A DNA stretch of 64,000 nt, taken from contig JAADEH010000010.1 in the NCBI GenBank assembly GCA_013153495.1, forward strand, positions 26,379-90,378. Reading direction: 5' to 3'. Each line of letters starts with the position of its first letter. Position 1 is the first letter of the stretch. Positions 1,355 to 59,087 of this stretch are shown one piece after another. The DNA comes from Aquificota bacterium. Its GTDB lineage: Bacteria; Aquificota; Aquificia; Aquificales; Aquificaceae. Both the position numbers and the translations under genes were made by a program. The notes under the pieces are model-generated. The model did not search any database. It worked only from the letters and a program-made list of their open reading frames with translations, and had not been told where the DNA came from.

Positions 1355-3106
1355 ATGAGAGTTGAAGGTGGAATTAAGTTCATACTCTTGAGCGAGATAG
1401 TGTTCCCCATACTTCTACTGATATTCGGTGTCTATCACGGCGTAATGCAGGTTCTGTATAGGGCGGGTGTTCTGAAGGCAGATTCCTTCTTGGGTATCGA
1501 TTACTATCAAGGTCTTACGCTACACGGGGTTATAAACGCTATAGTGTTTACAACCTTCTTTGCTGTGGCTTTCGGTAATGCCATATCCCTCTACCTTCTC
1601 AAAAAACCCCTTAGACCTGCGGTTCAGTGGATTTCCTGGATTTTGATGGTGGGCGGAACCCTGATGGCTGCCTGGGCGATGTTCACCAAGAGGGCAACTC
1701 TCCTCTACACCTTCTATCCACCCCTGATAGGGCATTGGACCTTTTACATAGGAACCGTTCTCCTCGTAGTAGGTTCTCTGTTGCCTTTCTTCTTCGACTG
1801 GATACCCAGTGCAATAGCTTGGAAGAGGGAAAATCCTGACAAGAAGCTACCCCTTGCTGTTTTCGGCGTTTTCGTAAACCACATTCTTTGGACCATAATG
1901 ATAGTTCCCGTTGCGGTTGAAATTCTGTTCCAGCTCTTCCCCCTTTCCATAGGTCTCGTGGAAGACATAAATCCTCTGCTTGCAAGGACGCTCTTCTGGT
2001 TCTTCGGACACCCGGTAGTTTACTTCTGGCTTCTGCCTGCTTACGTGATGCTTTACACTATGCTCCCTAAGATAGTCTCCGATAAAGGAAAACTTTACTC
2101 TGACCCTGCGGGAAGGCTCGCTTTTATTCTCTTTCTGCTATTTTCTCTTCCCGTCGGTCTTCACCACCAGTTCACGGAACCCGGCATAACCAACGCTTGG
2201 AAGTTGATACATGCCATATTTACCTTCTTCGTGGCTCTTCCCAGTCTTATAACCGCTTTCACCGTTGCGGCGTCCCTTGAATACTCCGCAAAGGCTGAGG
2301 ACCCCAGCGTCAAGAATTCCAGGTTTTACTGGTGGACCAGACTTCCCTACCTCAGACTCGAAGGAGATAAGTGGCTCTTCTCCTATTTCTTTGCAGGTCT
2401 GGTTCTGTTCTTCTTCGGAGGGATAACGGGAATAGTTAACGCTTCCTACAACTTAAACCTTGCGGTTCACAATACCGCTTATGTTCCCGGACACTTCCAC
2501 ACCACCGTAGGTGGTCTCGTTCTGCTCGCTTTCTTAGGAATGTCCCTCTACATGGTGGCGAAGATAAGGGGAACGGAGGTCAAGTTTAAGGGGCTTGCCG
2601 CACTCGCTCCCTACTTCTGGATGCAGGGGATGTTTATGTTCTCCTACGCTATGATGGTCGGGGGTGCTCTCGAAGGCTTCCCCAGAAGAACCAACTCCGG
2701 ACTTACCTACCTGAACCCCGACTCTCCCCTATACAGACCCGAGTGGGTGGGATACGCTCAGCTCTCGGTAGTCGGAGGAGCGCTTCTCGGAATAGGCTTT
2801 ATCCTTTTCCTGATAGCCTTCTTCGGAACCCTGCTGGCACCTAAGATTAGGGAATCGGTGGTGGAATTCCCCATAGCGGACGCTTATCACGATGCACCCA
2901 CACCGGTGCTTAACAACCTCAAGGGTTGGACCGTTGCGGCGGTTCTGCTGGCGGTTCTCTCTTACATACCTCCCCTATACGACGTAACCCAGAGGGGTGT
3001 TTTCCACAATTCTCCCGCTTATAACGAAAAATACCCCATACCTATAAAACAGCTTCAGCAGACCGAGGCTCAAAGCAAAGAGGTTTCCTTAAAGGAGGAG
3101 AAGTGA
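1355..3106 (+). CDS. cbaA: Cytochrome ba3 oxidase subunit I (B-family heme-copper oxidase)
   Basis: Polytopic membrane protein with YYQGLTLHG, FWFFGHPVVYF, GLHHQF and PGHFH ligand motifs. Confidence 0.93.
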   Translation: MRVEGGIKFILLSEIVFPILLLIFGVYHGVMQVLYRAGVLKADSFLGIDYYQGLTLHGVINAIVFTTFFAVAFGNAISLYLLKKPLRPAVQWISWILMVGGTLMAAWAMFTKRATLLYTFYPPLIGHWTFYIGTVLLVVGSLLPFFFDWIPSAIAWKRENPDKKLPLAVFGVFVNHILWTIMIVPVAVEILFQLFPLSIGLVEDINPLLARTLFWFFGHPVVYFWLLPAYVMLYTMLPKIVSDKGKLYSDPAGRLAFILFLLFSLPVGLHHQFTEPGITNAWKLIHAIFTFFVALPSLITAFTVAASLEYSAKAEDPSVKNSRFYWWTRLPYLRLEGDKWLFSYFFAGLVLFFFGGITGIVNASYNLNLAVHNTAYVPGHFHTTVGGLVLLAFLGMSLYMVAKIRGTEVKFKGLAALAPYFWMQGMFMFSYAMMVGGALEGFPRRTNSGLTYLNPDSPLYRPEWVGYAQLSVVGGALLGIGFILFLIAFFGTLLAPKIRESVVEFPIADAYHDAPTPVLNNLKGWTVAAVLLAVLSYIPPLYDVTQRGVFHNSPAYNEKYPIPIKQLQQTEAQSKEVSLKEEK

Positions 3107-3107
3107 T

Positions 3108-3827
3108 ATGCGTTTTCCGGCTCCCCTCGTCCCCCTTTTCCTCCTTTTTTTAATCTCCTTAGTTGGTGCTCAAACCTCAGGCACAGGCATACCTCCTAAC
3201 GAAAGCAGAACCTTGGGTAAGGAAGTTCCCGATGTGGTTTTAATAGACTCCTACGGAAATAAGTTCAACCTCCACGACCTTAGGGGAAAACCTGTAATAC
3301 TGAGTCCCATATACACCCACTGCACCTCTGCCTGTCCTATAATCACCCAAAGCCTGCAAAAAACTATCCCCCTTATGGGAACTCCCGGAGAGGATTTCTA
3401 CATACTCAGCCTGACCTTTGACCCCAAGGATGCGGTTGAAGACCTCAAGAAGTTTCGTAAAAAGCACAACATAAACTCAGAGGGTTGGAAGGTAGTTCTG
3501 GTGGAGAACAAGTCCGACCTCTTTAAGCTCTTAGATGCAATAGATTTTCGCTTTGCGACCCTACCCAACAGGGAATTCGTTCATCCCAACCTTATAGTGT
3601 TTTTAGACAAGGATATGGTCATAAGGAAGTATCTCTACGGGGTTGCCTTTGACAAGCTCGAGTTTGCCAACGCTCTGAGAATTGCCAAAGGGGAGATTGC
3701 GCTTCCCGAAAAGTTCAGAGGACACCTTTTTCTGGTCGGCATGCTCGGTTTCGTTAGCACGGTTATATTTCTGGTTGTGAGATTGTCCAGAAAGCGTATC
3801 CGAAGTGAAGAAAATCCTGCGGTTTAA
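3108..3827 (+). CDS. sco: SCO/SenC family copper chaperone
   Basis: CTSAC (CxxxC) motif, a downstream His (FVHPN), an N-terminal signal and a C-terminal TM; follows cbaA. Confidence 0.85.
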   Translation: MRFPAPLVPLFLLFLISLVGAQTSGTGIPPNESRTLGKEVPDVVLIDSYGNKFNLHDLRGKPVILSPIYTHCTSACPIITQSLQKTIPLMGTPGEDFYILSLTFDPKDAVEDLKKFRKKHNINSEGWKVVLVENKSDLFKLLDAIDFRFATLPNREFVHPNLIVFLDKDMVIRKYLYGVAFDKLEFANALRIAKGEIALPEKFRGHLFLVGMLGFVSTVIFLVVRLSRKRIRSEENPAV

Positions 3828-3831
3828 ATGT

Positions 3832-3858
3832 ATGTTAATATTCGCACATAATTAACAT
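3832..3858. promoter_or_regulatory. Inverted repeat in the AT-rich region upstream of the 663-aa gene
   Basis: ATGTTAAT-N11-ATTAACAT. Confidence 0.35.
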
Positions 3859-3937
3859 TTATGTATAAATAAGTATATCGATTTGAATTATCACATAAAA
3901 TCAGGCTAAACTCTTTAAAAATCTGTCTAAGGGGGAG

Positions 3938-5929
3938 ATGGAAATGGGAAATCTTATTACTCTAATGTGGAGTATTACACTAACCTTAGCCTTAACTTAC
4001 TCACTAACCTTCGGGATAGGGTTCAACCCTAAAAGCTTTACTAAGTGGGGATTCGAATTCTTCGGTGTAACGGATATTATGAAGGACTTATTCCAGTGTT
4101 TTATGCCTACTTGTAACATGATTTATCCTTACGATTTCACCGTTTATACCTATAATTCCAATCGAAATGATGAGCAAAAGAAATTTGTCGTTGCAGCAGG
4201 TGGGCTTGGAGACCCAGATGTGGAAACAGGATACGGTGTGCTTCTTTACTCGCCCGATGGATTTAGGTGGTATCCCATACTCGATGAGTATTACGACCCA
4301 CAAAATATAAGATTTTTTGAGCGTAAGCTGTGGGCTGTAGCTTCTGGACAAACATCTCAGGGTAATAAAACGAATATAGTAGTTGCTGTAGGAGATGAAG
4401 GAGATGTTGTAATAGCTGCCTACAATGCTGAAAAAGGAAGGTGGGATTCTTATAGAAGTGGAAAGAAATGTGGAGACGATATGCTCGACATAACTTATGT
4501 AGATAATACGAATTCCTTTGTTGCTGTTGGTGATAACGGTAGGGTGTGCGTTATAAAAGTTGGCAGTGTAGCCTTCGATAATGACCCTGTGGAACAAGAC
4601 CTTATGGGCGAACTTTCCGTGAATTTTGAAAGTGTGGAAAAGTTTACTCTCAGAGATGGAAATGGTAAAAAGATAAACTTGTTTCTATACGGCGTCGAAT
4701 ATTACGACAACGATTTGATAATCGTGGGTGATTTAGGGGGGATATTTAAAATTGAAAATGTAAGCAGTGATACATCCAGCTGGGAAGCTGTAAGACTCAA
4801 GGTAGGTTTAAATCCAAAGCAAAAGGATGCAGACAATTCTCAAAGTGGAAATAACTCTTCATGTAAGGACAACAAGGGTAATAAGCCGTCCACACCGGAG
4901 GCAAAAATTTATGACCCTATATATGATGTAGTATCTCTTGGAGATAAAGGAGAATTCTTGGCGGTAGGTAAAAACGGTCTTATTATCCATATATCAAATA
5001 ATTATTGTGACTACAATGCGGGACTTATAAGACTTAACCTCATAGAGGAAGTGGATTTGGGAACATCAGACTACGGTTGGGTTTCCGCCATGTTTCCTAC
5101 TTTAAAAGGTATATCGGTTAATAGATTTGGCTATGGTAGTGATAAGTATACCGTTTACGCTATGGTAAGCCGTGAAGGGCTAATTTTCTTAACCGATGAC
5201 TTTAAAAAGGGATGGGCAGTCATAGCTCCCGACCCTGCTTACAGAATTTCGCTAAACGGAATAACGGGCTTTGGTTCGGGCTTTGTTTCTGGTTCTCTCG
5301 GATTAGTTTTCTCGGTAATACAGAAACCTGTGCTTACTGCTTATCCTTCTCAAATAGTTGTTCCTCTTGTTCTTGATGGGTCCATATCTTACATTAGGGT
5401 AAATACGAAAAACAATACGTTTTTGCCTGTGATGGTTGACGCTATAAGAGTATATAACTATGCGGATTATAAGAAAAATTGTTTAGATGGCGTCTTTCTT
5501 TCTGATGATACCACTTTAAAAGGAGAACCTATAACATGCAAAGGAATGTCTTCTGTAGATGTAAACATAGTAGATGTAAACTGCGGTGAGAACACTTCTT
5601 TATATGTGGATAGTGCTCTCGTGAATCCCGGTGAGACCTGTGAGGTTTTAATTAGGATACAGCCTTCAACTGATATAACCTCTTTTAATGAAAATTACTT
5701 CATCTTGGAATATGAAACGGAGAATCCGATGACGAAAATGCTCATTCCCCTCGCTTCTGTGGGAATACAACTAAATGTCCTCGATAAGGAACAGGCAGTC
5801 AGTGAAGCACAGGCATTAGGTGGGTGTAGCATGGGAAATAGGTTTAATACTGACTTTATTTTGGTTCTTGTGCTTGCGGTAAGTATGTTCCTTTTAAGGA
5901 GATTTTATATGAGGAAAACCCCCGCATAA
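3938..5929 (+). CDS. Predicted exported beta-propeller protein (Ycf48/BNR-like blades) with a C-terminal GGC-TM-RR tail
   Basis: Hydrophobic N-terminus. Repeated VAVGDxG-type blades (VVAVGDEG, FVAVGDNG, IIVGDLG, FLAVGKNG) and Asp-box-like SPDGFRW and TDDFKKGW. Ends ALGGCSMG...ILVLVLAVSMFLLRR. Markedly AT-rich. Confidence 0.6.
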   Translation: MEMGNLITLMWSITLTLALTYSLTFGIGFNPKSFTKWGFEFFGVTDIMKDLFQCFMPTCNMIYPYDFTVYTYNSNRNDEQKKFVVAAGGLGDPDVETGYGVLLYSPDGFRWYPILDEYYDPQNIRFFERKLWAVASGQTSQGNKTNIVVAVGDEGDVVIAAYNAEKGRWDSYRSGKKCGDDMLDITYVDNTNSFVAVGDNGRVCVIKVGSVAFDNDPVEQDLMGELSVNFESVEKFTLRDGNGKKINLFLYGVEYYDNDLIIVGDLGGIFKIENVSSDTSSWEAVRLKVGLNPKQKDADNSQSGNNSSCKDNKGNKPSTPEAKIYDPIYDVVSLGDKGEFLAVGKNGLIIHISNNYCDYNAGLIRLNLIEEVDLGTSDYGWVSAMFPTLKGISVNRFGYGSDKYTVYAMVSREGLIFLTDDFKKGWAVIAPDPAYRISLNGITGFGSGFVSGSLGLVFSVIQKPVLTAYPSQIVVPLVLDGSISYIRVNTKNNTFLPVMVDAIRVYNYADYKKNCLDGVFLSDDTTLKGEPITCKGMSSVDVNIVDVNCGENTSLYVDSALVNPGETCEVLIRIQPSTDITSFNENYFILEYETENPMTKMLIPLASVGIQLNVLDKEQAVSEAQALGGCSMGNRFNTDFILVLVLAVSMFLLRRFYMRKTPA

Positions 5930-6675
5930 AGGAGAGCGACCGCTATGCGGTAAACCCCGAAGAGGGTAAAACCGTGGGAGTTTAGGAAACGCAGAAAGAG
6001 TTTAACCGTGAAGAGAGCGGTAAAGAAAGCGGTTATAAAACCCACACCCAGAAGCTCCCACTGCCCCCCCTCGAACTGTCCACCGCTCTTGTATAGGTCG
6101 TAGGCAGTAGCGGTAAACATGGTAGGAACCGCAAGAATAAAGGAAAATTCCGCAGCGCTCTTTCTGGAAAGCCCCATCAGCATACCGCCTATAATAGTTG
6201 CCCCGGACCTCGACACCCCCGGCACCACCGCAAGGGACTGGAAAAGCCCCACCGCAAAAGCCTTCTTCAGAGGCATATCGTCTATGTCCTTCAAGTAGCA
6301 AAACCTCTCACAATACCTGTCCGCCAGAATAAGCACCACACCGCCCAAAAATAGGTTCACCACCACCACGAGTTCGTTCCCCAGCAAATACCCCTTTATA
6401 ACCTTGTAAAGGAGAAATCCCACGATCCCTGTGGGAATAAAGGCAACCAGAACCCTCTTCCAGGTCTCAAAATCCTTCAAAAACCTTTCCCAGTAAAGGA
6501 AGAGAACCGCAAGTATGGAGCCGAGCTGAATAGCTATCTCAAAGCTCTTGGTAAACTCGTCGTGGGGAACACCGAGCATGTGAGCGGTTAAAATTAAGTG
6601 TCCCGTAGAGGACACGGGCAAAAACTCCGTCAGCCCCTCGACCACCCCCAAAATGAAAGCTTCCTTCACCGTCAT
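5905..6675 (-). CDS. uppP: Undecaprenyl-diphosphate phosphatase
   Basis: GVVEGLTEFLPVSSTGH and PGVSRSGATI motifs. Start reassigned to the ATG at 6675 (MTVKEAFILG). Confidence 0.93.
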   Translation of the reverse strand: MTVKEAFILGVVEGLTEFLPVSSTGHLILTAHMLGVPHDEFTKSFEIAIQLGSILAVLFLYWERFLKDFETWKRVLVAFIPTGIVGFLLYKVIKGYLLGNELVVVVNLFLGGVVLILADRYCERFCYLKDIDDMPLKKAFAVGLFQSLAVVPGVSRSGATIIGGMLMGLSRKSAAEFSFILAVPTMFTATAYDLYKSGGQFEGGQWELLGVGFITAFFTALFTVKLFLRFLNSHGFTLFGVYRIAVALLYAGVFLI

Positions 6676-6695
6676 GGAGAGATAATTATAAAGCT

Positions 6696-7838
6696 GTGAA
6701 GTTCGACGTCGTAGTTGTAGGTGCAGGACCCGCAGGTGCAAAAACCGCCTACGAGCTTGCCCGCAAAGGTGCAAAAGTCCTGATAATAGAAAAGCACAAA
6801 CTTCCCCGCTTCAAACTCTGCGGTGGATGCCTCTCCGCCAGAACCGCAGCCCTTTTACCCGAAGGCTGGCAAGGACAGGTCCTCAACGAAATAAAGAAGG
6901 GAATACTCGGATTTAAAGGAAAAGAGTTTATAGAAAAGACCGCCCTTCGGGCGGTGGCTTACATAATAGACAGAACATCCTTTGACCACTTCCTCACCCA
7001 AAAGGCTATCGAGGCAGGTGCCCAGCTCTGGGAAGAGGCACCCCTGACTCACTTCACCGTGGAAAATACCGTGAAAATTTCAACTCCCAAAGGAACGGTG
7101 AAGGCAGACTTCCTGGTGGGATCGGACGGCTTTTACACCAAAGTGGGAAAAATCCTCGGATACCAGAAGAAAAACTTCTTCCGCTCGGTAGAGTTCTGGA
7201 CCGAAGGCAACCTTCAGGATAGCGTCGTAATAGACCTCGGAATAGTATCCCGTGGCTACGCCTGGATTTTTCCGAAGGGAAACATGCTCAGCATAGGTGT
7301 TGCCACTACGGGAAGGGAAAACCTGAAAGATGTTCTCGAAAGGTATGTCAGAGACCATAAACTCCTCGAAAACATTACCGTAAAAGGTCTCAAGGGCTGG
7401 ATGATACCCTACCTAACCAAACCCGAAGACGCCCATCTGGGAAGGGGAAGAATTCTCCTTGTGGGAGATTCCGCAAATCTGGTGGACCCCCTGTTGGGAG
7501 AGGGCATATACTATGCGCTCAAAAGCGCCGAGCTTTGCGCCCAATCCATACTCAGCTCCCCTGAAAACCCGCTGCCCCAATACAGAAACTCCCTTCTGCG
7601 GGAAGTTATTCCCGAACTCGTATCCGCAGGAAAGATTGCCAACCTCGCCTATCGCTTTCAGAGGGTAGCCTACCGAATGGGTGCGGGATTTTCCCTCGAG
7701 AGGTTCTTCAAACTCTTGGAGGGGGAAGAGACCTACGAAAGCCTGTATCGCAAGGGAATGCCTGAATTTATTATGTCTCTCTTGCATATTGAAAATTTTT
7801 TGCATATAATAATAGATAAAATCTTAAGGAGGAGGTAA
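6696..7838 (+). CDS. Geranylgeranyl-reductase-family FAD oxidoreductase
   Basis: VVGAGPAG FAD motif, PRFKLCGG, GYAWIFP, and LVGDSANLVDPLLGEGIYYA. Confidence 0.8.
   Translation: MKFDVVVVGAGPAGAKTAYELARKGAKVLIIEKHKLPRFKLCGGCLSARTAALLPEGWQGQVLNEIKKGILGFKGKEFIEKTALRAVAYIIDRTSFDHFLTQKAIEAGAQLWEEAPLTHFTVENTVKISTPKGTVKADFLVGSDGFYTKVGKILGYQKKNFFRSVEFWTEGNLQDSVVIDLGIVSRGYAWIFPKGNMLSIGVATTGRENLKDVLERYVRDHKLLENITVKGLKGWMIPYLTKPEDAHLGRGRILLVGDSANLVDPLLGEGIYYALKSAELCAQSILSSPENPLPQYRNSLLREVIPELVSAGKIANLAYRFQRVAYRMGAGFSLERFFKLLEGEETYESLYRKGMPEFIMSLLHIENFLHIIIDKILRRR
7782..7810 (+). promoter_or_regulatory. Sigma70 promoter for the rubrerythrin operon, embedded in the 3' end of the upstream CDS
   Basis: TTGCAT (7782-7787), 17-nt spacer, TATAAT (7805-7810), in an abruptly AT-rich patch. 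Confidence 0.6.
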
Positions 7839-9635: not shown

Positions 9636-10226
9636 GTGATGCGTAAGGTAAGCATGAAGGACATTCTTAACCTTTACGAATACGAAAAGGTCAGGGACCA
9701 GAAGATTAAGGAAATAGCCCAAAAGAAGAAAAAGAGAAGAGTTCACGTGGGAGACAAGGTAACCCTCGTATTCGAGAACTTTGACACCGTTTGGTTTCAA
9801 ATTCAGGAGATGATAAGAGCGGAGAGAATGGTCAAAGATGAAGACATTCAGTTTGAGATAGATACCTACAACGAACTTATACCCGAGAAAAACCAGCTCT
9901 CCGCAACCATGTTCATAGAGATACCAGACCAGAAGGAGAGGAGAGAAACGCTCCCCAAACTCGTGGGAATACACGATGCGGTTTACATGCACATAGGGAA
10001 TAAATACACCGTAAAAGCCCGTGCGGACGAAAAGAGCCAGATGGATTACGAGGAAGGAAAGGCATCGGTGGTTCACTTCCTAAAGTGGGACCTCACTCCC
10101 GAGCAGGTGGAAGCCTTCAAGAAGGAACCTGTCAGGATTGAGATAAACCACGAAAACTACAAAGCTATGACCGAAATCCCCCCCGAAGTGAAAGAGGAGC
10201 TTGTAAAGGACTTAGAGAGCGACTGA
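9636..10226 (+). CDS. DUF3501 family protein
   Basis: YEKVR..., RRVHVGD.VTLVFEN, QIQEMIRAE and EIDTYNELIP; third gene of the rubrerythrin/Fe-S oxidoreductase triad. Confidence 0.8.
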   Translation: MMRKVSMKDILNLYEYEKVRDQKIKEIAQKKKKRRVHVGDKVTLVFENFDTVWFQIQEMIRAERMVKDEDIQFEIDTYNELIPEKNQLSATMFIEIPDQKERRETLPKLVGIHDAVYMHIGNKYTVKARADEKSQMDYEEGKASVVHFLKWDLTPEQVEAFKKEPVRIEINHENYKAMTEIPPEVKEELVKDLESD

Positions 10227-10234
10227 ACTCCCCT

Positions 10235-10588
10235 ATGCACAAGCTCTTCGTTTATGGAACCCTGAAGAAGGGTTTTAGCAACCACCACTTCCTCAAGGGT
10301 GCGAAGTTTTTAGGGAAAGCTATCACCAAGCACAAGTATGCCCTATACGAAACCTCAATCCCCTACGCCTATCCTTACGAGAAGGTAAGCCCCATAAGGG
10401 GAGAGCTATACGAGGTGGACACCCAAACTATCAGGAAAATAGACCTACTCGAAGGTCATCCCCACGCATACAGGAGGGAAGAGGTGCCGGTTCTTTTAGA
10501 AAACGGGGAGGAAGTCTTCGCATGGATATACTTTTATCCCAGGAAGAGGGGGAAGTTAAACCCCTCGGGGGAGTTCCAGCCCCGTTAA
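10235..10588 (+). CDS. Gamma-glutamylcyclotransferase (AIG2-like) family protein
   Basis: LFVYGTLKKG and IDLLEG...YRR motifs. Confidence 0.85.
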   Translation: MHKLFVYGTLKKGFSNHHFLKGAKFLGKAITKHKYALYETSIPYAYPYEKVSPIRGELYEVDTQTIRKIDLLEGHPHAYRREEVPVLLENGEEVFAWIYFYPRKRGKLNPSGEFQPR

Positions 10589-10597
10589 AATGGAGCT

Positions 10598-11332
10598 ATG
10601 CTCGTTCGACTCAATCGATACCTATCTATGTGCGGGGTATCTTCACGCAGGAAAGCGGACCAGCTCATAAAAGAGGGAAGGGTTAAGGTAAACGGACAAG
10701 TGGTGAGAGACTTGGGAGTCAAAATAGACCCCGAGCTTGACAGGGTAGAGGTCGATGGCAAAGAAGTCAGACCCCTCAGAAAGCGATACATAATCCTCAA
10801 CAAACCCTGCTGTTATCTGACCCAGCTCGGCAAGTCCCAGAGCGGTAAGAAAACCATAGAGGAACTCATAAAGGACATTCCCGAAAGGGTTTTCCCAGTG
10901 GGAAGACTCGACTACAACACCGAAGGTCTTTTGATCCTGACCAACGACGGAGAGCTGGCAAACCGAGTTCTTCACCCACGCTACAAATTACCAAAGGTAT
11001 ATTTAGCCCTCGTAAAGGGAAAGGTCTCCAAGAACACTTTAAGAAAGATGAAGAGAGGCATAGAGCTGGAGGACGGCTTCGCCGTGCCGGACGATGTCCG
11101 TATAGTCAGATACGAGGGAGACAACACCCTCTTGGAGATAACCTTTCACGAGGGGAGAAAACACATAGTAAAGAGGTTTCTCGCTTCCTTTGGACATCCC
11201 GTTATAAAACTCAAAAGGATAGCCATAGGACCTCTCACCCTCGGTAAACTCCCGCCTGGGAAATGGAGGGATTTGTCGGAGAGGGAACTCAGACAGCTCT
11301 TTTCCGCCGTTGGTTTAAAATATTCTCCCTGA
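10598..11332 (+). CDS. rluB: rRNA pseudouridine synthase with S4 domain (RluB/RsuA family)
   Basis: N-terminal S4 domain (RLNRYLSMCGVSSRRKAD); catalytic GRLDYNTEGLLILTNDG. Confidence 0.85.
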   Translation: MLVRLNRYLSMCGVSSRRKADQLIKEGRVKVNGQVVRDLGVKIDPELDRVEVDGKEVRPLRKRYIILNKPCCYLTQLGKSQSGKKTIEELIKDIPERVFPVGRLDYNTEGLLILTNDGELANRVLHPRYKLPKVYLALVKGKVSKNTLRKMKRGIELEDGFAVPDDVRIVRYEGDNTLLEITFHEGRKHIVKRFLASFGHPVIKLKRIAIGPLTLGKLPPGKWRDLSERELRQLFSAVGLKYSP

Positions 11333-11333
11333 G

Positions 11334-11708
11334 ATGGAACTGCTCAAGGTGTTCCTCATAGCCCTCGCAGGTGTTATAACCCTGATGTTTTTGCTTCAGC
11401 TCTTCGCAAGGTGGAAGGCAGGCAGGTCTGTGGGGAAGGAGTTTACCAAATTCGGCAGGGACGTAGTTCTATACTTTTACTCCCCGAGCTGTGGAGCTTG
11501 CCAGAGAATGAACCCCGTAATAGATAAGCTCTCGAAAAAGGTCAGAGTTAAGAAGATAGACGTTTCCAAAAAGGAAGGTCTCTGGGTGGCAAAGGAGTTG
11601 GGAATACTCGGGACGCCCACCACGGTGATAATAGAGAAGGGAAAGGTGGCAAAAGTTCTTTTCGGAATTCAGAAGGAGGATAAATTATTGAAGGAGGTAG
11701 GAAAATGA
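11334..11708 (+). CDS. Membrane-anchored thioredoxin-family protein
   Basis: N-terminal TM helix; CGAC (CxxC) and cis-Pro GTPT. Confidence 0.75.
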
Positions 11709-12358
11709 AGTTCTTCCTCGACACCGCTGACATAGAGCAGATTAGAACCGCAAACAGCTGGGGGATACTCGACGGTGTAACCACTAACCCGACCCTAATA
11801 TCCAAAACGGGAAGACCCTTTAAGGAGGTAGTTAAGGAGATACTTGAGGAGGTAGAGGGACCCGTCAGTCTCGAGACCGTTTCCCTCGATGCGGAGGGAA
11901 TGATAAGGGAAGGTCGTCAGCTCGCAGAGCTTGGGGACAACGTGGTTGTAAAAATACCCATGACTCCCGAGGGGATGAAAGCAGTTCAAACCCTCGAGGC
12001 GGAGGGCATACCCACCAACGTAACCCTCGTATTCTCTCCCGTACAGGCACTCATAGCGGCTAAGGCAGGGGCTTCCTACGTGTCCCCCTTCGTAGGCAGG
12101 ATAGATGACATATCTGGAGAAGGAATGAAGCTCATAAGGGAGATAAAAGAAATCTTTTACAACTACGAGGTGGATACGGAGATAATAGTGGCGAGCGTCC
12201 GTCATCCCATGCACGTCCTCGAGTCCGCCCTCATAGGAGCTGACATATGCACCATGCCCTTTGGAGTTATGGAGAAACTCTTTAAGCATCCTCTGACGGA
12301 TATAGGTATAGAGCGCTTCCTCAAAGACTGGGAAAAGGTGCCGGAAAAACCTTTCTAA
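11705..12358 (+). CDS. tal: Transaldolase / fructose-6-phosphate aldolase (short family)
   Basis: FFLDTA, GVTTNP, the VVKIP Schiff-base Lys, and YVSPFVGR. Confidence 0.92.
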
Positions 12359-15767: not shown

Positions 15768-16648
15768 GGGGAGTTCTTCTCCCCTCTCTCCTTTATCAAC
15801 TTATAAACTGCGGAAAAGTCCAAGTCCCCAAATCCCAAGCTCCTCGCAAGTCCGTAGGTTTCCTTAACCGCTGAAGCGGTAAAAGAAAAAAGCCCCAACT
15901 CCTTTATCAGGTCTTGAGCGTAATGAAGGTCCTTGTATATGAGGTTTACCGAAAAGTGAGTTGAGAAGTCCTCTTCGAGAAGCTTTTTCTTCTTCACGTC
16001 AAGTATGTAAGACTTCCCCGCTCCGGTGTTTAGTATCTCTATGAGCTGTTCCTTCTCTATCCCTGCCTTCTCCCCTATGGCTATAGCTTCCGCAAGAACG
16101 TCCATGATACCACCGAGGACTATGTTGTTTACGAGCTTTACCTTAGTAGCCTTACCTGCCTCTCCCACGTAGAATATGTTTTTGCAGAACTTCTTGAATA
16201 TTGGCTCGTTCTCCCGGAACTTCTCCTCGTCTCCACCCACCACTATGGTCAGCTCTCCCTTTTGAGCCGGAATAACGCTCCCTAAGACGGGAGCGTCCAG
16301 GTAGTAAGAACCGTATTTTTTCAATTCTTGATAAGCGAGCTTTGCGTAATTGAAGTGGTTGGTGGTCATGTCTATAACTGTCTTTCCCTTTATGTCTCCA
16401 CGAACGAGACCTTTCTCCCCAAATATCACCTGCTCCGACGCTTGAGAGTCGAAGACTATAACGAAAACCCTTTCTACCTGAGAGATGAGGTCAGCGGGAC
16501 TGTCCGCTACCTGAGCACCTGTCTCTTTTGCAAACTCACGAGCCTTATCGAGGCTCCTGTTCCAGACTACAAGCTCCTCTCCCTGCTCTATCAGCCTCTT
16601 GGCTATCGCTCTTCCTAAGTGTCCGAGACCTATAAAACCGAGCTTCAT
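15764..16648 (-). CDS. NAD(P)-dependent beta-hydroxyacid dehydrogenase (3-hydroxyisobutyrate/6-phosphogluconate dehydrogenase family)
   Basis: GFIGLGHLG Rossmann motif, DAPVLGS and KLVNN. Start reassigned to the ATG at 16648. Confidence 0.85.
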
Positions 16649-17058
16649 TACTTCTCTCCCGATTTGTTTTTTGCACACTTTATAACATCGTCGTCAAATG
16701 ACACAACTCTGTATGTAGAACTGTATGCACATAGTATGCAATCTACAAAATCAAGGTTCTTATTGCCAAATATATTTAGGGCATCAATCAAAATGCTTTT
16801 ATCCTGAACATTAACACCTTCCATGTTTAGAAACTCAGTGAGAACCTGGGCTATCTCCCGTCTGCTGACTTTATAAAGTTTTTGAAGCACATACACAACT
16901 TCGGCTAAAACAGCTTGTATTATTACCACTTGTTTTCTGCCAAAGAATACATCACTAAATAGACTTTCTGACCTGGTGTATAGCTCTTCATCGTCTTTGA
17001 GAAGATATCTAAGTATAACATTGGCATCAATCATTAATATGTTTTTCTGAGAGGGCAT
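16648..17058 (-). CDS. vapC: PIN-domain toxin (VapC-like)
   Basis: IDANVILRYL, LAEVV, DFVDCIL and SFD acidic PIN residues; the ATG at 17058 has a GAGG RBS. Confidence 0.8.
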   Translation of the reverse strand: MPSQKNILMIDANVILRYLLKDDEELYTRSESLFSDVFFGRKQVVIIQAVLAEVVYVLQKLYKVSRREIAQVLTEFLNMEGVNVQDKSILIDALNIFGNKNLDFVDCILCAYSSTYRVVSFDDDVIKCAKNKSGEK

Positions 17059-17278
17059 TTCCAATTACCTCTTTTTCTTCCCTAATTATATCTCTTATAG
17101 GTTTATTTTTTATCGCATATTTATGAAGTGCTCCTCCGAGTTTTCTTACAGGCTTTATAATAAGCTTATCATCTTCCATAACGATCTCTACAATGTCTGT
17201 TCCCAACTTTTTTCTATATTCTGCAGGAATGGTTATCTGTCCTTTATGAGTAATCTTGGCTATAGGCACTTTATCCAC
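17027..17278 (-). CDS. vapB: AbrB/MazE-type antitoxin (VapB-like)
   Basis: AKITHKGQITIP...RKKLG...LIIKP; overlaps the PIN gene. The true start may be the GTG at 17269. Confidence 0.8.
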   Translation of the reverse strand: MDKVPIAKITHKGQITIPAEYRKKLGTDIVEIVMEDDKLIIKPVRKLGGALHKYAIKNKPIRDIIREEKEVIGNALSEKHIND

Positions 17279-17325
17279 CTCTTACTTATAGTAAAAGATA
17301 GGCTCTTGCGGATTCTCCGAAAGTC

Positions 17326-29858: not shown

Positions 29859-30275
29859 ATGCTGGCGTTTTTGGCGCTTCTAATTATTGGAATATCAGCA
29901 TTTTCTTATTCTCAAACCGAAGGGTGGGTAACGGACTTTGACAGAGGTGTTGAGCTTGCGAAGAGCCAAAATAAGGAGGTTTTAATTTACTTTTACGGTG
30001 AACACTGCCCATACTGCTTACAGATGGAGGAATTCGTCTTAGGAGACCCGGAAGTTGACAGTTATATAAGAGAAAGATTTGTAGTTGTAAGTTTGAATAT
30101 AAGTGAAGTTCATGAACTTGATAAAAAATTTGGTGTAATAGGAACTCCCTACTTCGTCGTTTATGACCCTAAAAGGGATAAAATAGTTTTGAGAATATTT
30201 GGAAGTAGGGAGAGGGAAGACTTTTTGAACTTGCTAATTAAGGCTTGTAAGAAATCCAATCTAAGGAGGTGTTAG
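29859..30275 (+). CDS. soxW: SoxW-like periplasmic thioredoxin
   Basis: Signal peptide; CPYC and GTPY motifs; first gene of the sox cluster. Confidence 0.7.
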   Translation: MLAFLALLIIGISAFSYSQTEGWVTDFDRGVELAKSQNKEVLIYFYGEHCPYCLQMEEFVLGDPEVDSYIRERFVVVSLNISEVHELDKKFGVIGTPYFVVYDPKRDKIVLRIFGSREREDFLNLLIKACKKSNLRRC

Positions 30276-30277
30276 AT

Positions 30278-30736
30278 ATGATTACAAGAAGGGACCTTTT
30301 CAAGGTCGCAGGAGTGGGAGCGGTGGCATTAGCCGTGGCTCCCGGAGCGGTCAAGCCTTCCTTTGGGGCACCCAAGAAGATATCCATCGAGGACTCCCTC
30401 AAGGAGCATTTGGGAGTAGGTCTTTCGGCTCTCAAGGAGAGCAACCTCATTCACATCAAGGCTCCCACGATAGCCGAGTCCGGCGCAAACGTTCCGGTCC
30501 AGGTCAAGGCGAACATACCCGTTGACCAGGTTCAGGCTCTTTACATATTTGCGGATGCAAACTTCAATCCCTGGGTAACTACAGTCGAGTTCTCTCCCAT
30601 GAACGGTGAGGTTTTCTTTGCAACCAGAATAAAGCTCGCTAAGACTTCTCCCGTCAGAGCTGTAATAAAGATGAAGGACGGAAGCCTGCTGGCTGCTGCT
30701 AAGGAAGTTAAGGTTACGGTCGGCGGTTGCGGCTGA
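30278..30736 (+). CDS. soxY: Sulfur carrier SoxY
   Basis: Tat signal RRDLF; APTIAESGANVP; C-terminal VTVGGCG swinging arm. Confidence 0.95.
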   Translation: MITRRDLFKVAGVGAVALAVAPGAVKPSFGAPKKISIEDSLKEHLGVGLSALKESNLIHIKAPTIAESGANVPVQVKANIPVDQVQALYIFADANFNPWVTTVEFSPMNGEVFFATRIKLAKTSPVRAVIKMKDGSLLAAAKEVKVTVGGCG

Positions 30737-47419: not shown

Positions 47420-49147
47420 GTGCCGATAAAACCTCTCAGGGACATGTTCGTAAATTTAGAACTACTTCAGGCAAAAGCTTCCTCGCTCGGAGTTGACTTG
47501 GGGGAGCTGCTGGAGAACCCCCACTTATCCTTTGAGGAAGTCCTCACCTTGATAATGTCCTCCCTCCCGAAAGCGAACCATGTCCCCGCTGAAAAAGCCG
47601 AACCCTTAGGTGATGAAAACTCTTCCCAATCAAATCCCGAACCGGAAACTCAACAAGCCTGCACAAGTAGGAAAGCCCCTTGCCTTCAAATACAAGAAAT
47701 CCCAAAACCCCTGCAACTTTTCACGGAAAAACCTCCCTCGGAGGAACAGAGTAGGATAGTGCGAACCCAAGAAAGAGATGCTCCTGAGAAAACAAAAATC
47801 TTTCCCCCACGCCTTATCTCAAACGCACCTGCACCCCACCCTTTTACCCAGGAAACCGTATCCCCGGACAACCCGCCTCAGCCCGACACCGACCCCAATT
47901 TGAACCTCCGGACGAGCCAGCTCCCGCCTATCGAACACACGGGGACTAAATCTAAACTAACGCAACCTGAGTCGGAAAACAGTTCTAACACCTACGAAAA
48001 ACCTAAGCCTCTTCCAAGCGCCGGGGAACGCGGAAAACTCTTCCCTGCGGAGACACAAGCCCCCCGAAAATCCGCAGTAAAAACCGAACCTTTGAAACAC
48101 CTGCGAGAACCTATAAAAACTTTCACCCACGAACAGCGATACGCCGAAGAACAGAAGGATAAAGAAGATTTCTTATTAGTTAAAAAGACCGCTGACGCGG
48201 TGAAAAAAGAACCTTTAAACCTCCCGGAGAAAAAAGAGATAAAAATTCCCCGTAGAATCGAGACCAATCCCGATACCCACCCGAAACCCACCAAGCCCTT
48301 GCTCGGGAAAAAGCCAACGAAGTCCACCACCGTGCATGTTCAAGAAGTAAGCTCAGCTGAATTTGAACCCAAAAGGCACGCCACCGACGCTCAAACCGAC
48401 CTCCAAAGGGAAACTTCCCCACAGCCATCTCAAGAAAAACCTCCTCAGAGGCAACCCGAACCCTTACGAACCTCCCCAGCCACCGCTGAAAATACTCAGG
48501 CAAAGACCCGAGAGAACGCTCCCTCCGAGCGACTGTCTCAAAACCCCGACAAAACCGAGCTAACACCCCGAACGGAACTCACCCCCGAAGATGGAGAAAT
48601 CTTTTTGGACAAACAACCCAACCAGCCTATCCGCCCCGAGGAAGTTTCCAGACCCGTCCCGAAGCGAGAACTCACCGAAAATACTAAAGCCCAAGCTCCG
48701 AAGCCTGAAAACGGAGAGCACCGTCCCGAGCTAAACCTCAAGCCCAAGGATACCGTTTTCGAGGAAACCCCTCAAACTCAAGAAACTTACCAGAGGGAAG
48801 CAACCCTACCTCCAAAGCAGGAAGTAAAGCACATAAGGCTCAGATTTGAGGACGCCCACATAAGGTTCCGCTTCCAGAGCGCAAATGTTCAGGTGGAAGT
48901 AAACCTCAAGGAAGACCTGCAGAGGCACCTCACTTACCTGGACATTCAAAGGCTCACCAAAAGCCTCGAGAACCTCGGACTTTCCTTGGAAGGTTTTAAG
49001 GTAAACGGCATGGAACTCGTAGGCAGAAACTCGAGGGGACCGAAGCGTGAAGATAAAGAGAGGTTTAATATAAAGGATAGAGATGAAATTCCTGAGAAAG
49101 CTAACGGTAGCACTTCTTATAGTCCTGATTTCAACCTACTCCTTTAA
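47420..49147 (+). CDS. Flagellar hook-length control protein FliK-like
   Basis: About 450 aa of P/E/T/K-rich disordered sequence, then a compact C-terminal beta-beta-beta-alpha-beta region ([29 protein letters not shown]); heads a flagellar block. Confidence 0.55.
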
Positions 49148-54903: not shown

Positions 54904-55548
54904 CTACCTGACATGAACAGAAATACTGCTCAATTTCCCCCTGACTATAACCCTACCTAAATCCCCCTTGAAGAGAGCGTCTATCTCCGACTCAGCAGGG
55001 TTTTCCCTGTTCACCTTTATGGTTCCACCGCCTTTGAGGGTCATTCCCATGGCTTTAATGACTCCCTCGAACTTTTCCCCCGTGAACTTAAGCTCTGCAG
55101 ACTCAACTTCCACACCCTGCGCCATTATTCCTTTCAGGTTCAGCGTTCCGAATATACCATTCCTTATTGCAACCTCTCCGCTCAGCTCTCCTACCCGCTC
55201 TATGCAGGAAAATTTGTCAAAGCTAAGCTTGAGGTTTCTCCTGTAGCTTATAAAGCCTTCGAGTCTCCCCTCACCGCAGGTGCCCTTCAGCTTCAACCCC
55301 GAAAGGGTGAGGGATAGATTGAGTTTATCCAGATGAGCAATCTCGGAATTACCTTTGAAGATGCGCACACCTTCCATTATTACTTTTCTGAAGTTTTCTT
55401 CTACCCTTCGGGTGAGTATGTGAATGTCCGCCTCACCGAGAAGCTTGTCTAAGAGAACCGCCTTGGGTAGGGAAACGACCGAGGCAACGCCCCCCACCGT
55501 GAGGAACACGCAGAGTGGAATAAGGAAATTAATAAAAATCTTCCTCAT
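54904..55548 (-). CDS. Type II secretion GspN-like protein
   Basis: N-terminal anchor and a beta-rich body; overlaps the gspD stop. Assignment rests mostly on context. Confidence 0.45.
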   Translation of the reverse strand: MRKIFINFLIPLCVFLTVGGVASVVSLPKAVLLDKLLGEADIHILTRRVEENFRKVIMEGVRIFKGNSEIAHLDKLNLSLTLSGLKLKGTCGEGRLEGFISYRRNLKLSFDKFSCIERVGELSGEVAIRNGIFGTLNLKGIMAQGVEVESAELKFTGEKFEGVIKAMGMTLKGGGTIKVNRENPAESEIDALFKGDLGRVIVRGKLSSISVHVR

Positions 55549-57532
55549 CCTCTTCCTGTTCCTCTTGTTTCTTCTTCTCTTCCAATCTCTTCCTTATTTC
55601 TTCCGACAGTTTCCTGTGCTCTTCCGTAATCTTCGCCAGCTCTTCCGGGGATGATATTACGTAGGGAGTTATGAATATAAACAAGGTCGTTTTGTCCTCC
55701 TGACGGACGTCCCTTCTGAAGAGCCTTCCCACTATGGGAACCTTCCAGAGTCCGGGGACGCCCTCGATAGCCTTCAGGGTTTTGGTGCTCACCAACCCTC
55801 CCAGGATTATGGTCTGCCCATTTTCCACGACCACGTCCGAGTTAACTTCCCTGTTCGACGTTACCGGAACCGTATAGCTGGTAGTTCCTATCTGATTAGT
55901 TACGAAGTCAATAATCTCTTCGAGGTTCAGGCTTATGGTCAGTCTAAGATTGTTACCCGAGACCCTCGGTGTAACGTTAAGCTCGAGTCCTACCTCCTTG
56001 TAGTCGTAAGTGATTATAGGTTGTCCGTTTATGTCAAACTTGACACCTTCCGCATAGGGTATTACCTGCCCCACCTTTATGACCGCCGGCTGGTTGTCGA
56101 GGGTTAAGACCTTGGGGTTAGAAACTATGTTAAAGCCCGAACCCGTCTCCAGCAGGGAGAAAAGGAGCACCAGGTCGGGGAAGAAGAAGTTAGTCCCGCT
56201 TATTGTAATAGTTCTTCCTGCGTCGGAAAAGGCTCCTATGAGGAAGTTCCCTGAAAGAAATGAGCTGTATATGTCGGTGAGAGAGCTTCCCCTAAAGGAG
56301 GCACCACCCCTCTTGCCGAGTATCTGCCACCTGATACCTATGTCGAGTAAGCTCTTGGTGGAGGCTTCCACCACCGTTGCCGCTATCAGAACCTGTTTTC
56401 TCCTGACGTCAAGCTTGGATATAAGCTCTTTAATGCTCTCGTATTCGCTCCTGGTTGCGTATAGTATTACGGAGTTCGTTCCCCTGTCAAAGCCTATCTT
56501 CATTCCCTCTTTTGTGGTTATGAAGCTTATGGGTTGGGGTTGAAGTGGTTGGGTTTGTCTTTGGGGTCTGACCCGCCTTCCACGATTGCTGGTTTGCGCT
56601 GTAGTCTGTGGTCTTTGTGTTTGCTGTCTTTGGGGATAAATCCTGGTCGGGGGTGAGGTTTTCCTTCCTGTCATAAGGTTTTGGAGAGTTTGAGCAAGCT
56701 CCTCTGCGGATATAAAGCTCAGGGGTATTATGTAAAAGCTCCTTTGCTCGGAAAGGACATTTTCCGTATCTACTTTGGAGATTATTTCGCTAACTATGCT
56801 GTGTCCTTCCTTCGTGGTGAACACCACGAGTGCGTTAGCCTCTTGGGAGGAAGCTACCACCATAGGTGAGCCGAACCTTTTAGAAAAAGCGGTATTCAGT
56901 GGAGAGATTAGCCGAACCGCATCCTTGACGGACAGGTATTTGAGTTTATAAATCCTGACCTCTCCTTCCGCTTCGCTTCTGTCTAACCTTGAAAGTATCT
57001 TTCTCGCCTTCCTGATGTTTTCACCTACATCCGCAATTATTATGGAGTTTGATGGGGTGTGAACCGATACCCGTGCGAAGGAGGATAGGAAGGGTCTTAT
57101 GGAGTTCATTACCGTTTGAGCTTCCGTGTGTTTTAGGTTAAAAACCAGAACAGCCAGCTCACCCTTTGCGGGTTTTCCCTTAACCTGAGCTACGGAAACC
57201 GCCTCGTTCAGAGGCAGTATCTTTACCACCTTGTCGTCTTCCACAACGCCGTATCCCTGCATAAACAGGGCTGAGGTGAACACATCCCACGCTTCTCTTA
57301 TCTTCAGAGGTTTTGAGAAAACGAGGCTCATCTTACCCCGCACAGCGGGGTCAACTACTATGTTTTTGTTTAAAAGCTCTCCCATAAACTGAGCAAGTTC
57401 GTTTATGTCCGCATTCTGAAAGTTTAAGATGACCTCACCTCTGGCTTTCGCTTCCGCTACCAAATCTTCCCAAATTTCTTGTGCAAAAAGGCTCGATACC
57501 ACAAGCAAAATTATGAGAACCGCTCTCTTCAT
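55529..57532 (-). CDS. gspD: Type II secretion system secretin GspD
   Basis: LNFQNADI, N1-N3 domains, [27 protein letters not shown], and [14 protein letters not shown]. Confidence 0.88.
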
Positions 57533-57563
57533 ATTTCCACAGAGTTATTATAATTTTTCCTGT

Positions 57564-59087
57564 ATGAACCCAAAACTCGAATTGGAGACCCTTTACGAGA
57601 TAAGCAAACTGCTTTCAAGCTCTTTAAATATCGAAGCAACCGTTCCCTACATATTCAGGCTCTTAAAGAAATACATGGGCTTTGAGAGGATTACCCTAAC
57701 CCTATACGACCCCTCTACGGACCAGATAGTGGTAAAAGCCACCTCCTCGGGAAAGTTCCCCAAGGAAGGCTTCAGGAAAGGGGAAGGTATAACGGGCAAG
57801 GTCTGGAAGCACGGTGTCCCGATAGTTATTCCCGACATATCCAAAGAACCCGAGTTCTTGAACAAGCTCTGGAAGAGAAAGAACATCAAAGGTAAAAAGA
57901 TAGCCTTCATAGCGGTGCCGATAAAAATCGGAGGTGAGGTGATAGGGGTCCTGAGTGCGGATAAGGAGATGTCCGGTAGGGAGTCCCTCGACGAGCTTAC
58001 CCGCTTCCTGAACATGATAGCGACCCTCATAGCCAACAGCTTTTCCCTCGAGAGGAAGGTAGAGGAGGAGAGAAAGGGTCTCGAGATAGAGAAAAAAGCT
58101 CTCGAGATGGAGCTTAAGAGGATATACAAAGACCTTAAGGTAGAGGGGATAGTAGGCAGGAGCAGGCAGATACTCGAGGTCCTGGACCTCGTTCACAGGG
58201 TAGCACCTACAAATGCTACGGTTCTGCTAAGGGGTGAGAGCGGTGTTGGTAAGGAGGTTTTTGCAAGAGCCATACACTTCTTGAGTCCGAGAGCGGACAA
58301 ACCCTTCGTAACGGTCAACTGTGCCGCAATACCTGAGACCCTGCTCGAGGCTGAACTCTTCGGATACGAGAAGGGAGCCTTTACGGGAGCCTACGGAACC
58401 AAAAAGGGCAAATTTGAGCTTGCCAGCGGAGGGACCATATTCCTCGACGAGATAGGGGACATGCCTCTCTTCTTGCAGGTAAAACTTCTCAGAGTTCTTC
58501 AGGAGAAGGAAATAGAGAGGTTGGGAGGAAGCAAACCCATAAAGGTTGACGTTAGGGTGATTGCGGCAACCAACAGAAACTTGGAACAGCTTATGAAGGA
58601 AGGTAAGTTCAGGGAAGACCTCTACTACCGCCTGAATGTCTTTCCCATATTCATCCCGCCTCTGAGGGAGAGGAGAGAGGACATTCCTATCCTCGTTCAG
58701 CATTTTGTAGAGACCTTCGGTAGGGAATACGGAAAGGAGGTGAAGGTGTCCCCGGAAGTTATGGACCTCTTTATGGCTTACGACTGGCCCGGAAACGTGA
58801 GAGAGCTTCAGAATGTGGTGGAGAGAATGATTATCCTCGATACCGACGGTGTTTTAACGGTGGAGGAGCTTCCCTCGGAACTCAAAAGTAGCGTTGAGAA
58901 ACCCAAAACTACACCTCCACCCCAACCTTCGGAGGGGGAGTCTATATGGGACATAGAGAGAAAACTGATAGAGCAGGCTCTCAGGGAGTCCGGATACGTC
59001 ATCAAGGAAGCGGCAAAGAAGCTCGGCATGACACCACGGCAGGTTAGCTACCGAATACAAAAATACGGTATAAAATTACCCCGATGA
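57564..59087 (+). CDS. GAF-AAA-HTH sigma54 activator (NifA-like)
   Basis: GAF (GEGITGKV); [20 protein letters not shown] and [10 protein letters not shown]; C-terminal HTH. Start reassigned to the ATG at 57564. Confidence 0.92.

Follow-up and report, generated by a model that had tools for sequence, protein, structure and literature searches.

We analyzed a gene in a 64,000-nucleotide stretch of DNA from an Aquificota bacterium of the family Aquificaceae (assembly GCA_013153495.1, contig JAADEH010000010.1, positions 26,379 to 90,378 of the forward strand; the whole stretch is referred to here as the window). The gene is an open reading frame (ORF) of 663 amino acids at 3938-5929 (+), including the stop codon at its end. 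We found that it is a strain-variable, single-gene accessory cassette that moves horizontally. Taken together, the data show a mobile gene for a probable propeller protein with a conserved cysteine-bearing tail, by which it is tethered or through which it is sorted, and export is predicted from a signal-like N-terminus. What is new here is that, at both family loci, the gene is present in some genomes of a natural population and absent from others.

The gene is located downstream of coxII, coxI and SCO1, and upstream of a convergent uppP and a geranylgeranyl-reductase-like gene. An initial annotation, made from the sequence alone, had reported the ORF and its VAVGDxG-type repeats, and we located both. 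The GC content of the gene is 0.393, and 0.354 at third codon positions (GC3). The 47 genes of the window that encode 150 aa or more, the cassette gene among them, have means of 0.491+-0.023 and 0.575+-0.049, respectively (z = -4.3 for GC and -4.5 for GC3). The same annotation had described an AT-rich gene among GC-richer flanks. This was correct for the gene (39% GC), but the flanks are 47-52% GC rather than 57-63%, and the contrast is ~10 points rather than 20 or more. Chance is excluded as the origin of the ORF because a 663-codon frame is open in 39% GC DNA and a homolog with 35% identity spans 96% of the query.

The AT-rich region directly upstream (3823..3937, +) contains a promoter-like site, recognized by consensus match, and a Shine-Dalgarno sequence. 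The promoter-like sequence (TTTAAA-18-CATAAT at 3823-3852) is a consensus match only and is not above shuffle expectation. The Shine-Dalgarno sequence, AGGGGGAG, is at 3930-3937, and its G-run is 2 nt from the first ATG (3938) and 8 nt from the ATG at 3944. The homolog, P0002, has the same AAGGGGG with 6 nt spacing to its start, and the block AAAAnCTGnnTAAGGGGG upstream of the start codon is common to both genes. Because of the Shine-Dalgarno spacing and the comparison with the homolog, the true start is probably the ATG at 3944 rather than that at 3938, and the protein would then be 661 aa.

The protein belongs to a very small family that is restricted to the Aquificaceae. A word-index search of 5.8 billion proteins returned only the cassette protein itself and one relative (P0002), as did an exhaustive phmmer search of 1.84 billion cluster representatives. 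P0002 is 628 aa and is 35% identical to the cassette protein over 96% of the query (39% in a global alignment). When 185,579 species genomes were scanned, P0002 was located in an Aquificaceae metagenome-assembled genome, and a third family member, 78% identical to P0002, was identified in another one. This third copy is interrupted by a contig end exactly at ...VTVGGC. No further homologs were found in JGI metagenomes or IMG/VR viral contigs. Pfam and NCBIfam were searched with the complete cassette protein, with P0002, and with the propeller region and C-terminal domain, and returned nothing beyond two sub-threshold matches; a profile search of PDB sequences gave noise only (E 0.33 or worse). 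PADLOC returned no match and PHROGs nothing meaningful for the cassette protein, which thus gives no indication of a role in defence or of phage origin. Residues 228-346 of P0002 (gene at 10001-11887 of its contig, L001) weakly match phrog_32339, a family of unknown function (E 7e-4, 20 bits), and the cassette protein does not have this match.

We found that the cassette gene is present in only part of the population. Near-identical sequence was present in four DNA runs of one study and in one epibiont metagenome, and contigs from three of the four runs (X1, X2 and X3) and from the epibiont run were compared over 2500-7500. In X2 and X3, the left-flank contig stops at 3792 and the right-flank contig starts at 5914, forming a clean assembly bubble. 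The assembly graph defines a cassette of 2121 nt (3793..5913, +; GC 0.386) that contains the upstream region and nearly the whole gene. In the empty allele, a 19-nt filler, GAGGTATAGGCTACGCTAA, is in place of the cassette. The branch with the gene had a depth of 9.7 in X2 and 6.4 in X3, and the empty branch (3792 to 5914) had depths of 33.1 and 29.8, respectively (flanks, ~43 and ~30). Based on these branch depths, approximately four-fifths of the genomes in X2 and X3 lack the gene. The path through the gene in X1 had a depth of ~445, close to that of the flanks (490-580). At ~99% identity to the window, the contigs come from a single species, and the variation is therefore intraspecific. The exact empty-site junction was searched for in JGI metagenomes and not found.

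Reconstruction of both alleles revealed how the cassette fits between its neighbors. The left neighbor, SCO1/SenC (3108..3827, +), is 239 aa in both alleles. Its last 11 codons read RGIGYAKKTPA in the empty allele and KRIRSEENPAV in the filled allele. In the empty allele, the convergent SCO1 and uppP genes have overlapping 3' ends, and SCO1 ends in ...RLSRRGIGYAKKTPA and a stop codon (also written ...RRGIGYAKKTPA and a stop codon), using bases 5915-5929. The last codons of the cassette gene, (R)KTPA and the stop (5914..5929, +), are beyond the end of the cassette. These bases terminate the propeller gene when the cassette is present and SCO1 when it is absent, and they overlap the 3' end of uppP. 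The right neighbor, undecaprenyl-diphosphatase (BacA/UppP; 5905..6774, -; assigned by Pfam), ends in ...FLI with the cassette inserted and in ...FLA at the empty site, a change of the last codon from A to I upon insertion. Insertion truncates neither SCO1 nor UppP. The cassette replaced 19 nt within the SCO1/uppP 3' overlap, gave SCO1 a new 11-codon end, and took over its old last codons and stop codon.

There is also an empty site at the locus of the homolog. P0002 is encoded between murE and tonB-exbD-exbB on L001. In a vent metagenome (X6), a minor contig (depth 4.3, compared to 112.5) joins position 9859 of L001 to 11873 through a 34-nt filler. The 2013 nt that are gone (GC 0.406) correspond to the gene and 141 nt upstream, and tonB is intact. 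The two cassettes are built alike. Both start ~141-151 nt upstream of the ATG, both stop 4-5 codons before the stop codon (RRFYM(R)/KTPA-stop and RRA/YSSL-stop, with the slash marking the cassette end), and both have low GC3 (0.41 for the homolog, in a region of ~0.50 overall GC). Each cassette ends a few codons past the Arg cluster and relies on the target site for its stop codon. This arrangement, in cassettes that contain no recombinase gene, hints at a defined mode of insertion. We found no integrase or transposase at the cassette, and repeats at its termini, inverted or direct, do not exceed chance-level 12-mers. Horizontal acquisition, which the initial annotation had proposed, is well supported by the atypical GC3, by the unrelated genomic contexts of the two family members, which have no common synteny, and by the presence/absence polymorphism at both loci.

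The window contains two other low-GC islets. One encodes a PIN toxin and a MazE/AbrB-type antitoxin (16648-17278, -; GC 0.33-0.35; Pfam). A minor contig in X3 joins 16649 to 17322 (depth 6.9, compared to 25), skipping the pair, which indicates that it is also a presence/absence cassette. The other is a gene at 29859-30275 (+; GC 0.38) for a thioredoxin/DsbD-C-like exported protein, directly upstream of soxY-soxZ.

The cassette protein begins with a signal-peptide-like hydrophobic N-terminus, recognized by inspection (residues 1-26; 3938..4015, +). All three family members begin with a hydrophobic signal-like segment, and the homologs have canonical MRLK or MRFK n-regions. The signal-like segment is followed by PKSFTKWGFEFFGVTDIMKDLFQCFMPTCN (residues 31-60; 4028..4117, +), which is 90% identical to P0002 in the alignment with the homolog, compared to 3-57% for every other 30-column block. 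As judged from this alignment, residues 31-60 are by far the most constrained part of the protein. They contain a conserved CxxxxC pair and could be a partner-binding or propeller-closing element.

Residues ~62-462 (4121..5323, +) most likely form a beta-propeller with about seven blades. There are five clear hhAVG(D)xG blade motifs, starting at residues 84, 148, 194, 260 and 340, which occupy matching positions in P0002, and two degenerate motifs identified by eye near residues 406 and 448. An N/S/K/D-rich low-complexity insert between blades, KVGLNPKQKDADNSQSGNNSSCKDNKGNKPSTPEAK (residues 289-323; 4802-4906), is predicted to be disordered and is largely absent from the homologs. In an AlphaFold2 (AF2) model, residues 131-290 are all beta with predicted local distance difference test (pLDDT) values of 65-85, and every top Foldseek match of the model is a beta-propeller (TM-scores 0.3-0.59; best 0.59, on the target). 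Against this, the full-length model, made from a two-sequence alignment, is poor (mean pLDDT 41.8). The blade repeats, and a model that is confident in part and has propeller-only matches, support the exported beta-propeller initially described; the quality of the model does not allow the class of propeller to be assigned. The protein may resemble the Asp-box (BNR) and Ycf48-like bacterial beta-propellers. The likeness consists of the hhAVGxxG strand motif, which recurs, a single S-x-D-G-G-x-x-W resembling an Asp-box in blade 1, and the propeller-only Foldseek matches. Unlike those proteins, the cassette protein has a single clear Asp-box and no Pfam or NCBIfam propeller or BNR match at E<=10.

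Residues ~463-615 (5324..5782, +) appear to be a beta-rich C-terminal domain, possibly an Ig-like sandwich, and contain a conserved P-G-x-x-C-E motif. The Ig-like identity proposed for this region is weak. When searched alone against Pfam, the domain matched PF22544 (HYDIN/CFA65/VesB-like Ig-like; E 0.051), and the AF2 model is mostly strands, but the match is below threshold (14.2 bits, cutoff 25.5) and the low confidence of the model (pLDDT 37) also counts against it.

The protein ends in a tripartite tail, ...AQAL-GGC-SMGNRFNTD-FILVLVLAVSMFLL-RRFYMRK-TPA, found as initially described. It consists of Gly-Gly-Cys (residues 628-630, ggt ggg tgt; 5819..5827, +), a polar spacer, SMGNRFNTD, with Asp at +9 from the Cys (5828..5854, +), a 14-aa hydrophobic segment, FILVLVLAVSMFLL (5855..5896, +), and a basic cluster, RRFYMRK (5897..5917, +). 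AF2 predicts a helix over residues 635-659 (pLDDT ~70). GGC, including the Cys whose conservation had been singled out for checking, is kept in all three family members, and the hydrophobic segment and RR in both complete sequences. Across these two, the spacer is 7-9 aa and the hydrophobic core 12-14 aa. The linker before the hydrophobic segment cannot be aligned between homologs except for GGC. The number of Cys residues is odd in both proteins (11 in the cassette protein and 7 in P0002), and the other Cys conserved in the homolog occur in close twos (54/59, 178/204, and 568 with 549 or 534). Since those can be paired, the tail Cys is the one left over and would be unpaired.

We compared the tail to the curated models of sorting signals. 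The isolated 49-aa tail matched JDVT-CTERM (NF033191) over 31 of the 35 model positions (4-34), with a score of 16.1 bits (E 0.008; cutoff 27). The match was lost when the Cys was changed to Ser, when GGC was changed to AAA, when residues were shuffled within the spacer and hydrophobic segments, and in full shuffles. Changing the spacer Asp to Ala reduced the score from 16.1 to 13.6 bits. The anchor tail of SCO1 gave no match. These controls indicate that the resemblance is specific to the Cys motif and the order of residues and is not due to composition. In its sequence, the tail has more the look of a signal than of an anchor.

One component of a candidate secretion system is encoded in the window, as had been noted. 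A GspD-type secretin of a type II secretion system (T2SS) is encoded at 55529..57532 (-), ~50 kb from the cassette and unlinked to it. It scores 468.9 bits on TIGR02517 (cutoff 351.35) and has the Pfam architecture of GspD N0, three Secretin_N stretches and Secretin. A 214-aa ORF directly downstream of gspD (54904-55548, -) has one N-terminal hydrophobic segment and no Pfam or NCBIfam match; it could encode a secretin partner. Divergent from gspD is a gene for a sigma-54 activator (57429-59087, +; 533.5 bits on the NifA equivalog, cutoff 528.85), the start of which overlaps the gspD start region. A 575-aa ORF at 47420-49147 (+) has no Pfam or NCBIfam match.

The interpretation we favor, tentatively and with a little less than an even chance of being right, is that the product is a mobile accessory envelope protein whose Cys tail is a sorting route analogous to those of MYXO-CTERM and JDVT-CTERM proteins. 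The protein would be exported by the Sec pathway and held in the inner membrane by its tail, with the Arg cluster in the cytoplasm. The lone Cys would then be modified, probably lipidated, and an intramembrane protease encoded elsewhere would cut off the hydrophobic segment. By analogy this protease could be CPBP/myxosortase-like, or alternatively a rhomboid. The GspD T2SS would take the protein to the surface of the cell, and there it would be a variable protein under strain-level gain and loss. Such gain and loss would fit a surface-exposed protein under frequency-dependent selection. A more specific proposal is that the tail is a new, Aquificaceae-specific Cys-type sorting signal on a self-contained one-gene cassette, processed by the Lgt-like lipidation and a generic CPBP or rhomboid protease of the recipient and then by the GspD T2SS; we regard this version as unlikely, though worth stating.

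The strongest alternative is a plain type-I membrane anchor. The propeller would remain in the periplasm, attached to the inner membrane, with no cleavage, and GGC would serve as a hinge, form an intermolecular disulfide or bind a ligand. We consider this quite possible, if on balance doubtful. Bitopic proteins generically combine an N-terminal signal with a hydrophobic segment and basic residues at the C-terminus, and SCO1 next door ends in just such a tail, a plain C-terminal transmembrane (TM) segment and basic anchor with no GGC. A one-gene cassette is also simplest if no dedicated host factor is needed. Several results weigh against sorting, and the first of them speak for the plain anchor. 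No curated sorting-signal model reached its cutoff on the cassette tail, and the tail of P0002 matched none of them. We found no CPBP, rhomboid or exosortase gene in the window or within +-10 kb of the homolog, and no unassigned window protein has four or more TM segments. The window membrane proteins are accounted for as Cox, UppP, FNT, SulP and FliF; one 100-aa ORF with three TM segments and no family match is too small for a CPBP or rhomboid protease. The cassette carries one gene only, so any dedicated protease must already exist in the recipients. The family is tiny, and conservation is judged from three sequences, of which two share 78% identity. No second tail-bearing protein was found in the window, and only P0002 in the 22 kb of L001, in what was a low-power scan of ~86 kb in total. 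Full-length cassette protein had no match in Pfam or NCBIfam at E<=10, neither tail has the Asp-Pro of JDVT-CTERM, and we looked for RNA-seq runs and found none.

Other properties of the tail are difficult to reconcile with a plain anchor. Its hydrophobic core of 12-14 aa, in the cassette protein and in the homolog, is short for a stable anchor in the membrane of a thermophile; that of SCO1 is 19 aa. GGC is the sole invariant element of a linker that is otherwise unalignable, and its Cys is unpaired. The JDVT-like score requires the Cys and the order of residues, and the SCO1 anchor has no such score. The undescribed C-terminal sorting system suggested in the initial annotation is supported only in part: the invariant GGC, the unpaired Cys and the Cys- and order-dependent score are consistent with it, but the sub-threshold score, the unmatched homolog tail, and the lack of a DP motif, of a nearby protease and of a second cargo in ~86 kb are not.

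It is considerably less probable that the tail is a GlyGly-CTERM-like signal, cut after Gly-Gly by a rhomboid or rhombosortase, with the Cys incidental. The tail does have GG followed by a hydrophobic segment and a basic end, the domain before it has a weak match to the VesB-type Ig-like family, and GspD is in the window; GlyGly-CTERM cargo depends on the T2SS (PMC6219818). However, the GlyGly-CTERM model has no match at E<=10, the weak likeness is instead to the Cys-type JDVT model and vanishes when Cys is changed to Ser, and no rhomboid gene was seen in the window.

Even less probable is that GGC holds a carrier cysteine on a flexible arm, like that of SoxY, acting in periplasmic sulfur chemistry. 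The organism carries soxYZ, the homologs read VTVGGC (L001 ~11770-11794 in P0002), and the SoxY encoded in the window (30269-30736, +) ends in VKVTVGGCG. The cassette protein, however, reads ALGGCS, SoxY has no hydrophobic segment after its motif, and most genomes in two populations (X2 and X3) do without the gene. Homology of the C-terminal domain to SoxY was rejected because there is no sequence similarity between them (E = 11). That the gene is a decaying foreign fragment or an annotation artefact, as its atypical composition, the lack of family matches and the lack of an RNA run could suggest, is hardly credible, given an intact 663-codon frame in AT-rich DNA, intact full-length homologs (35-39% identity) with conserved Cys pairs, blades and tail, and ~99% identity, free of indels, across three independent runs.

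If the tail is processed, as in the sorting interpretation that we favor, then Cys-type C-terminal sorting (MYXO, JDVT, Synerg and CGP-CTERM) would extend to a deep-branching thermophilic phylum, and such a signal would work on a mobile one-gene cassette that does not carry its own protease. This would also bear on which enzyme modifies the invariant Cys. If the tail is indeed a new signal, surface display could be gained or lost by one 2-kb recombination event. Regardless of the tail, the locus is a clean natural case of an envelope protein that is gained and lost between strains of Aquificaceae at hydrothermal vents, and the filled and empty alleles both keep two overlapping neighbor genes intact.

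JDVT-CTERM is the only curated model that gave any match to the cassette tail. The JDVT-CTERM signal has a single Cys and, nine residues on, a near-invariant Asp-Pro; the CPBP protease MrtJ is encoded adjacent to the cargo in 16 of 17 loci, and there is usually one cargo per strain (10.1101/2023.06.07.544157). The cassette tail is similar in its single Cys after Gly, in the hydrophobic segment followed by an Arg cluster and, in the cassette protein only, in an Asp nine residues after the Cys. One cargo per genome and a sporadic distribution like that of horizontally transferred genes are also common to both. The tail differs from JDVT-CTERM/MrtJ (NF033191/NF033192) in that its 16.1 bits are below the cutoff of 27, and the full protein and the homolog tail have no match. 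There is no DP motif: the cassette protein has DF at +9/+10, and P0002 has P at +7 without D. The neighbors are SCO1 and UppP, with no adjacent MrtJ-type CPBP gene, and the host is an Aquificaceae bacterium, whereas JDVT-CTERM hosts are Pseudomonadota. Membership in JDVT-CTERM was rejected on the sub-cutoff score, the missing DP and the lack of an adjacent CPBP gene.

MYXO-CTERM is, by analogy, the better functional parallel. Unlike MrtJ, MrtX is never encoded next to its cargo (10.1101/2023.06.07.544157), and cleavage by MrtX, a CPBP protease, needs the Cys, after which the T2SS moves the cargo (PMC11980579). The cassette protein would share with MYXO-CTERM/MrtX (TIGR03901) the tripartite tail, the invariant Cys in a Gly-rich motif, a protease not encoded beside the cargo and T2SS-dependent delivery to the surface, with GspD encoded in the window. 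In contrast, neither tail matches TIGR03901 at E<=10, and there is a single Cys here where MYXO-CTERM often has GCGC. There are dozens of cargo proteins per MYXO genome and one tail protein here in the ~86 kb scanned, and MYXO-CTERM is confined to the Myxococcota.

GlyGly-CTERM occurs with rhombosortase, for example in VesB of Vibrio cholerae (TIGR03501; PMC3237569, PMC6219818). The cassette tail is like GlyGly-CTERM in its GG motif, hydrophobic segment and basic residues and in the possible T2SS route, and like VesB in having an Ig-like domain directly before the tail, if the weak PF22544 match is correct. It differs in having no match to the hidden Markov model, in its Cys, which is not part of GlyGly-CTERM, and in the lack of a rhomboid in the window. 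The generic features of Cys-type tripartite tails (10.1101/2023.06.07.544157) are present: a C-terminal motif with an invariant Cys, a hydrophobic segment, an Arg cluster and, by inspection, an N-terminal signal. Based on these comparisons, we suggest that the tail is a novel form of Cys-type tripartite tail that belongs to no curated family.

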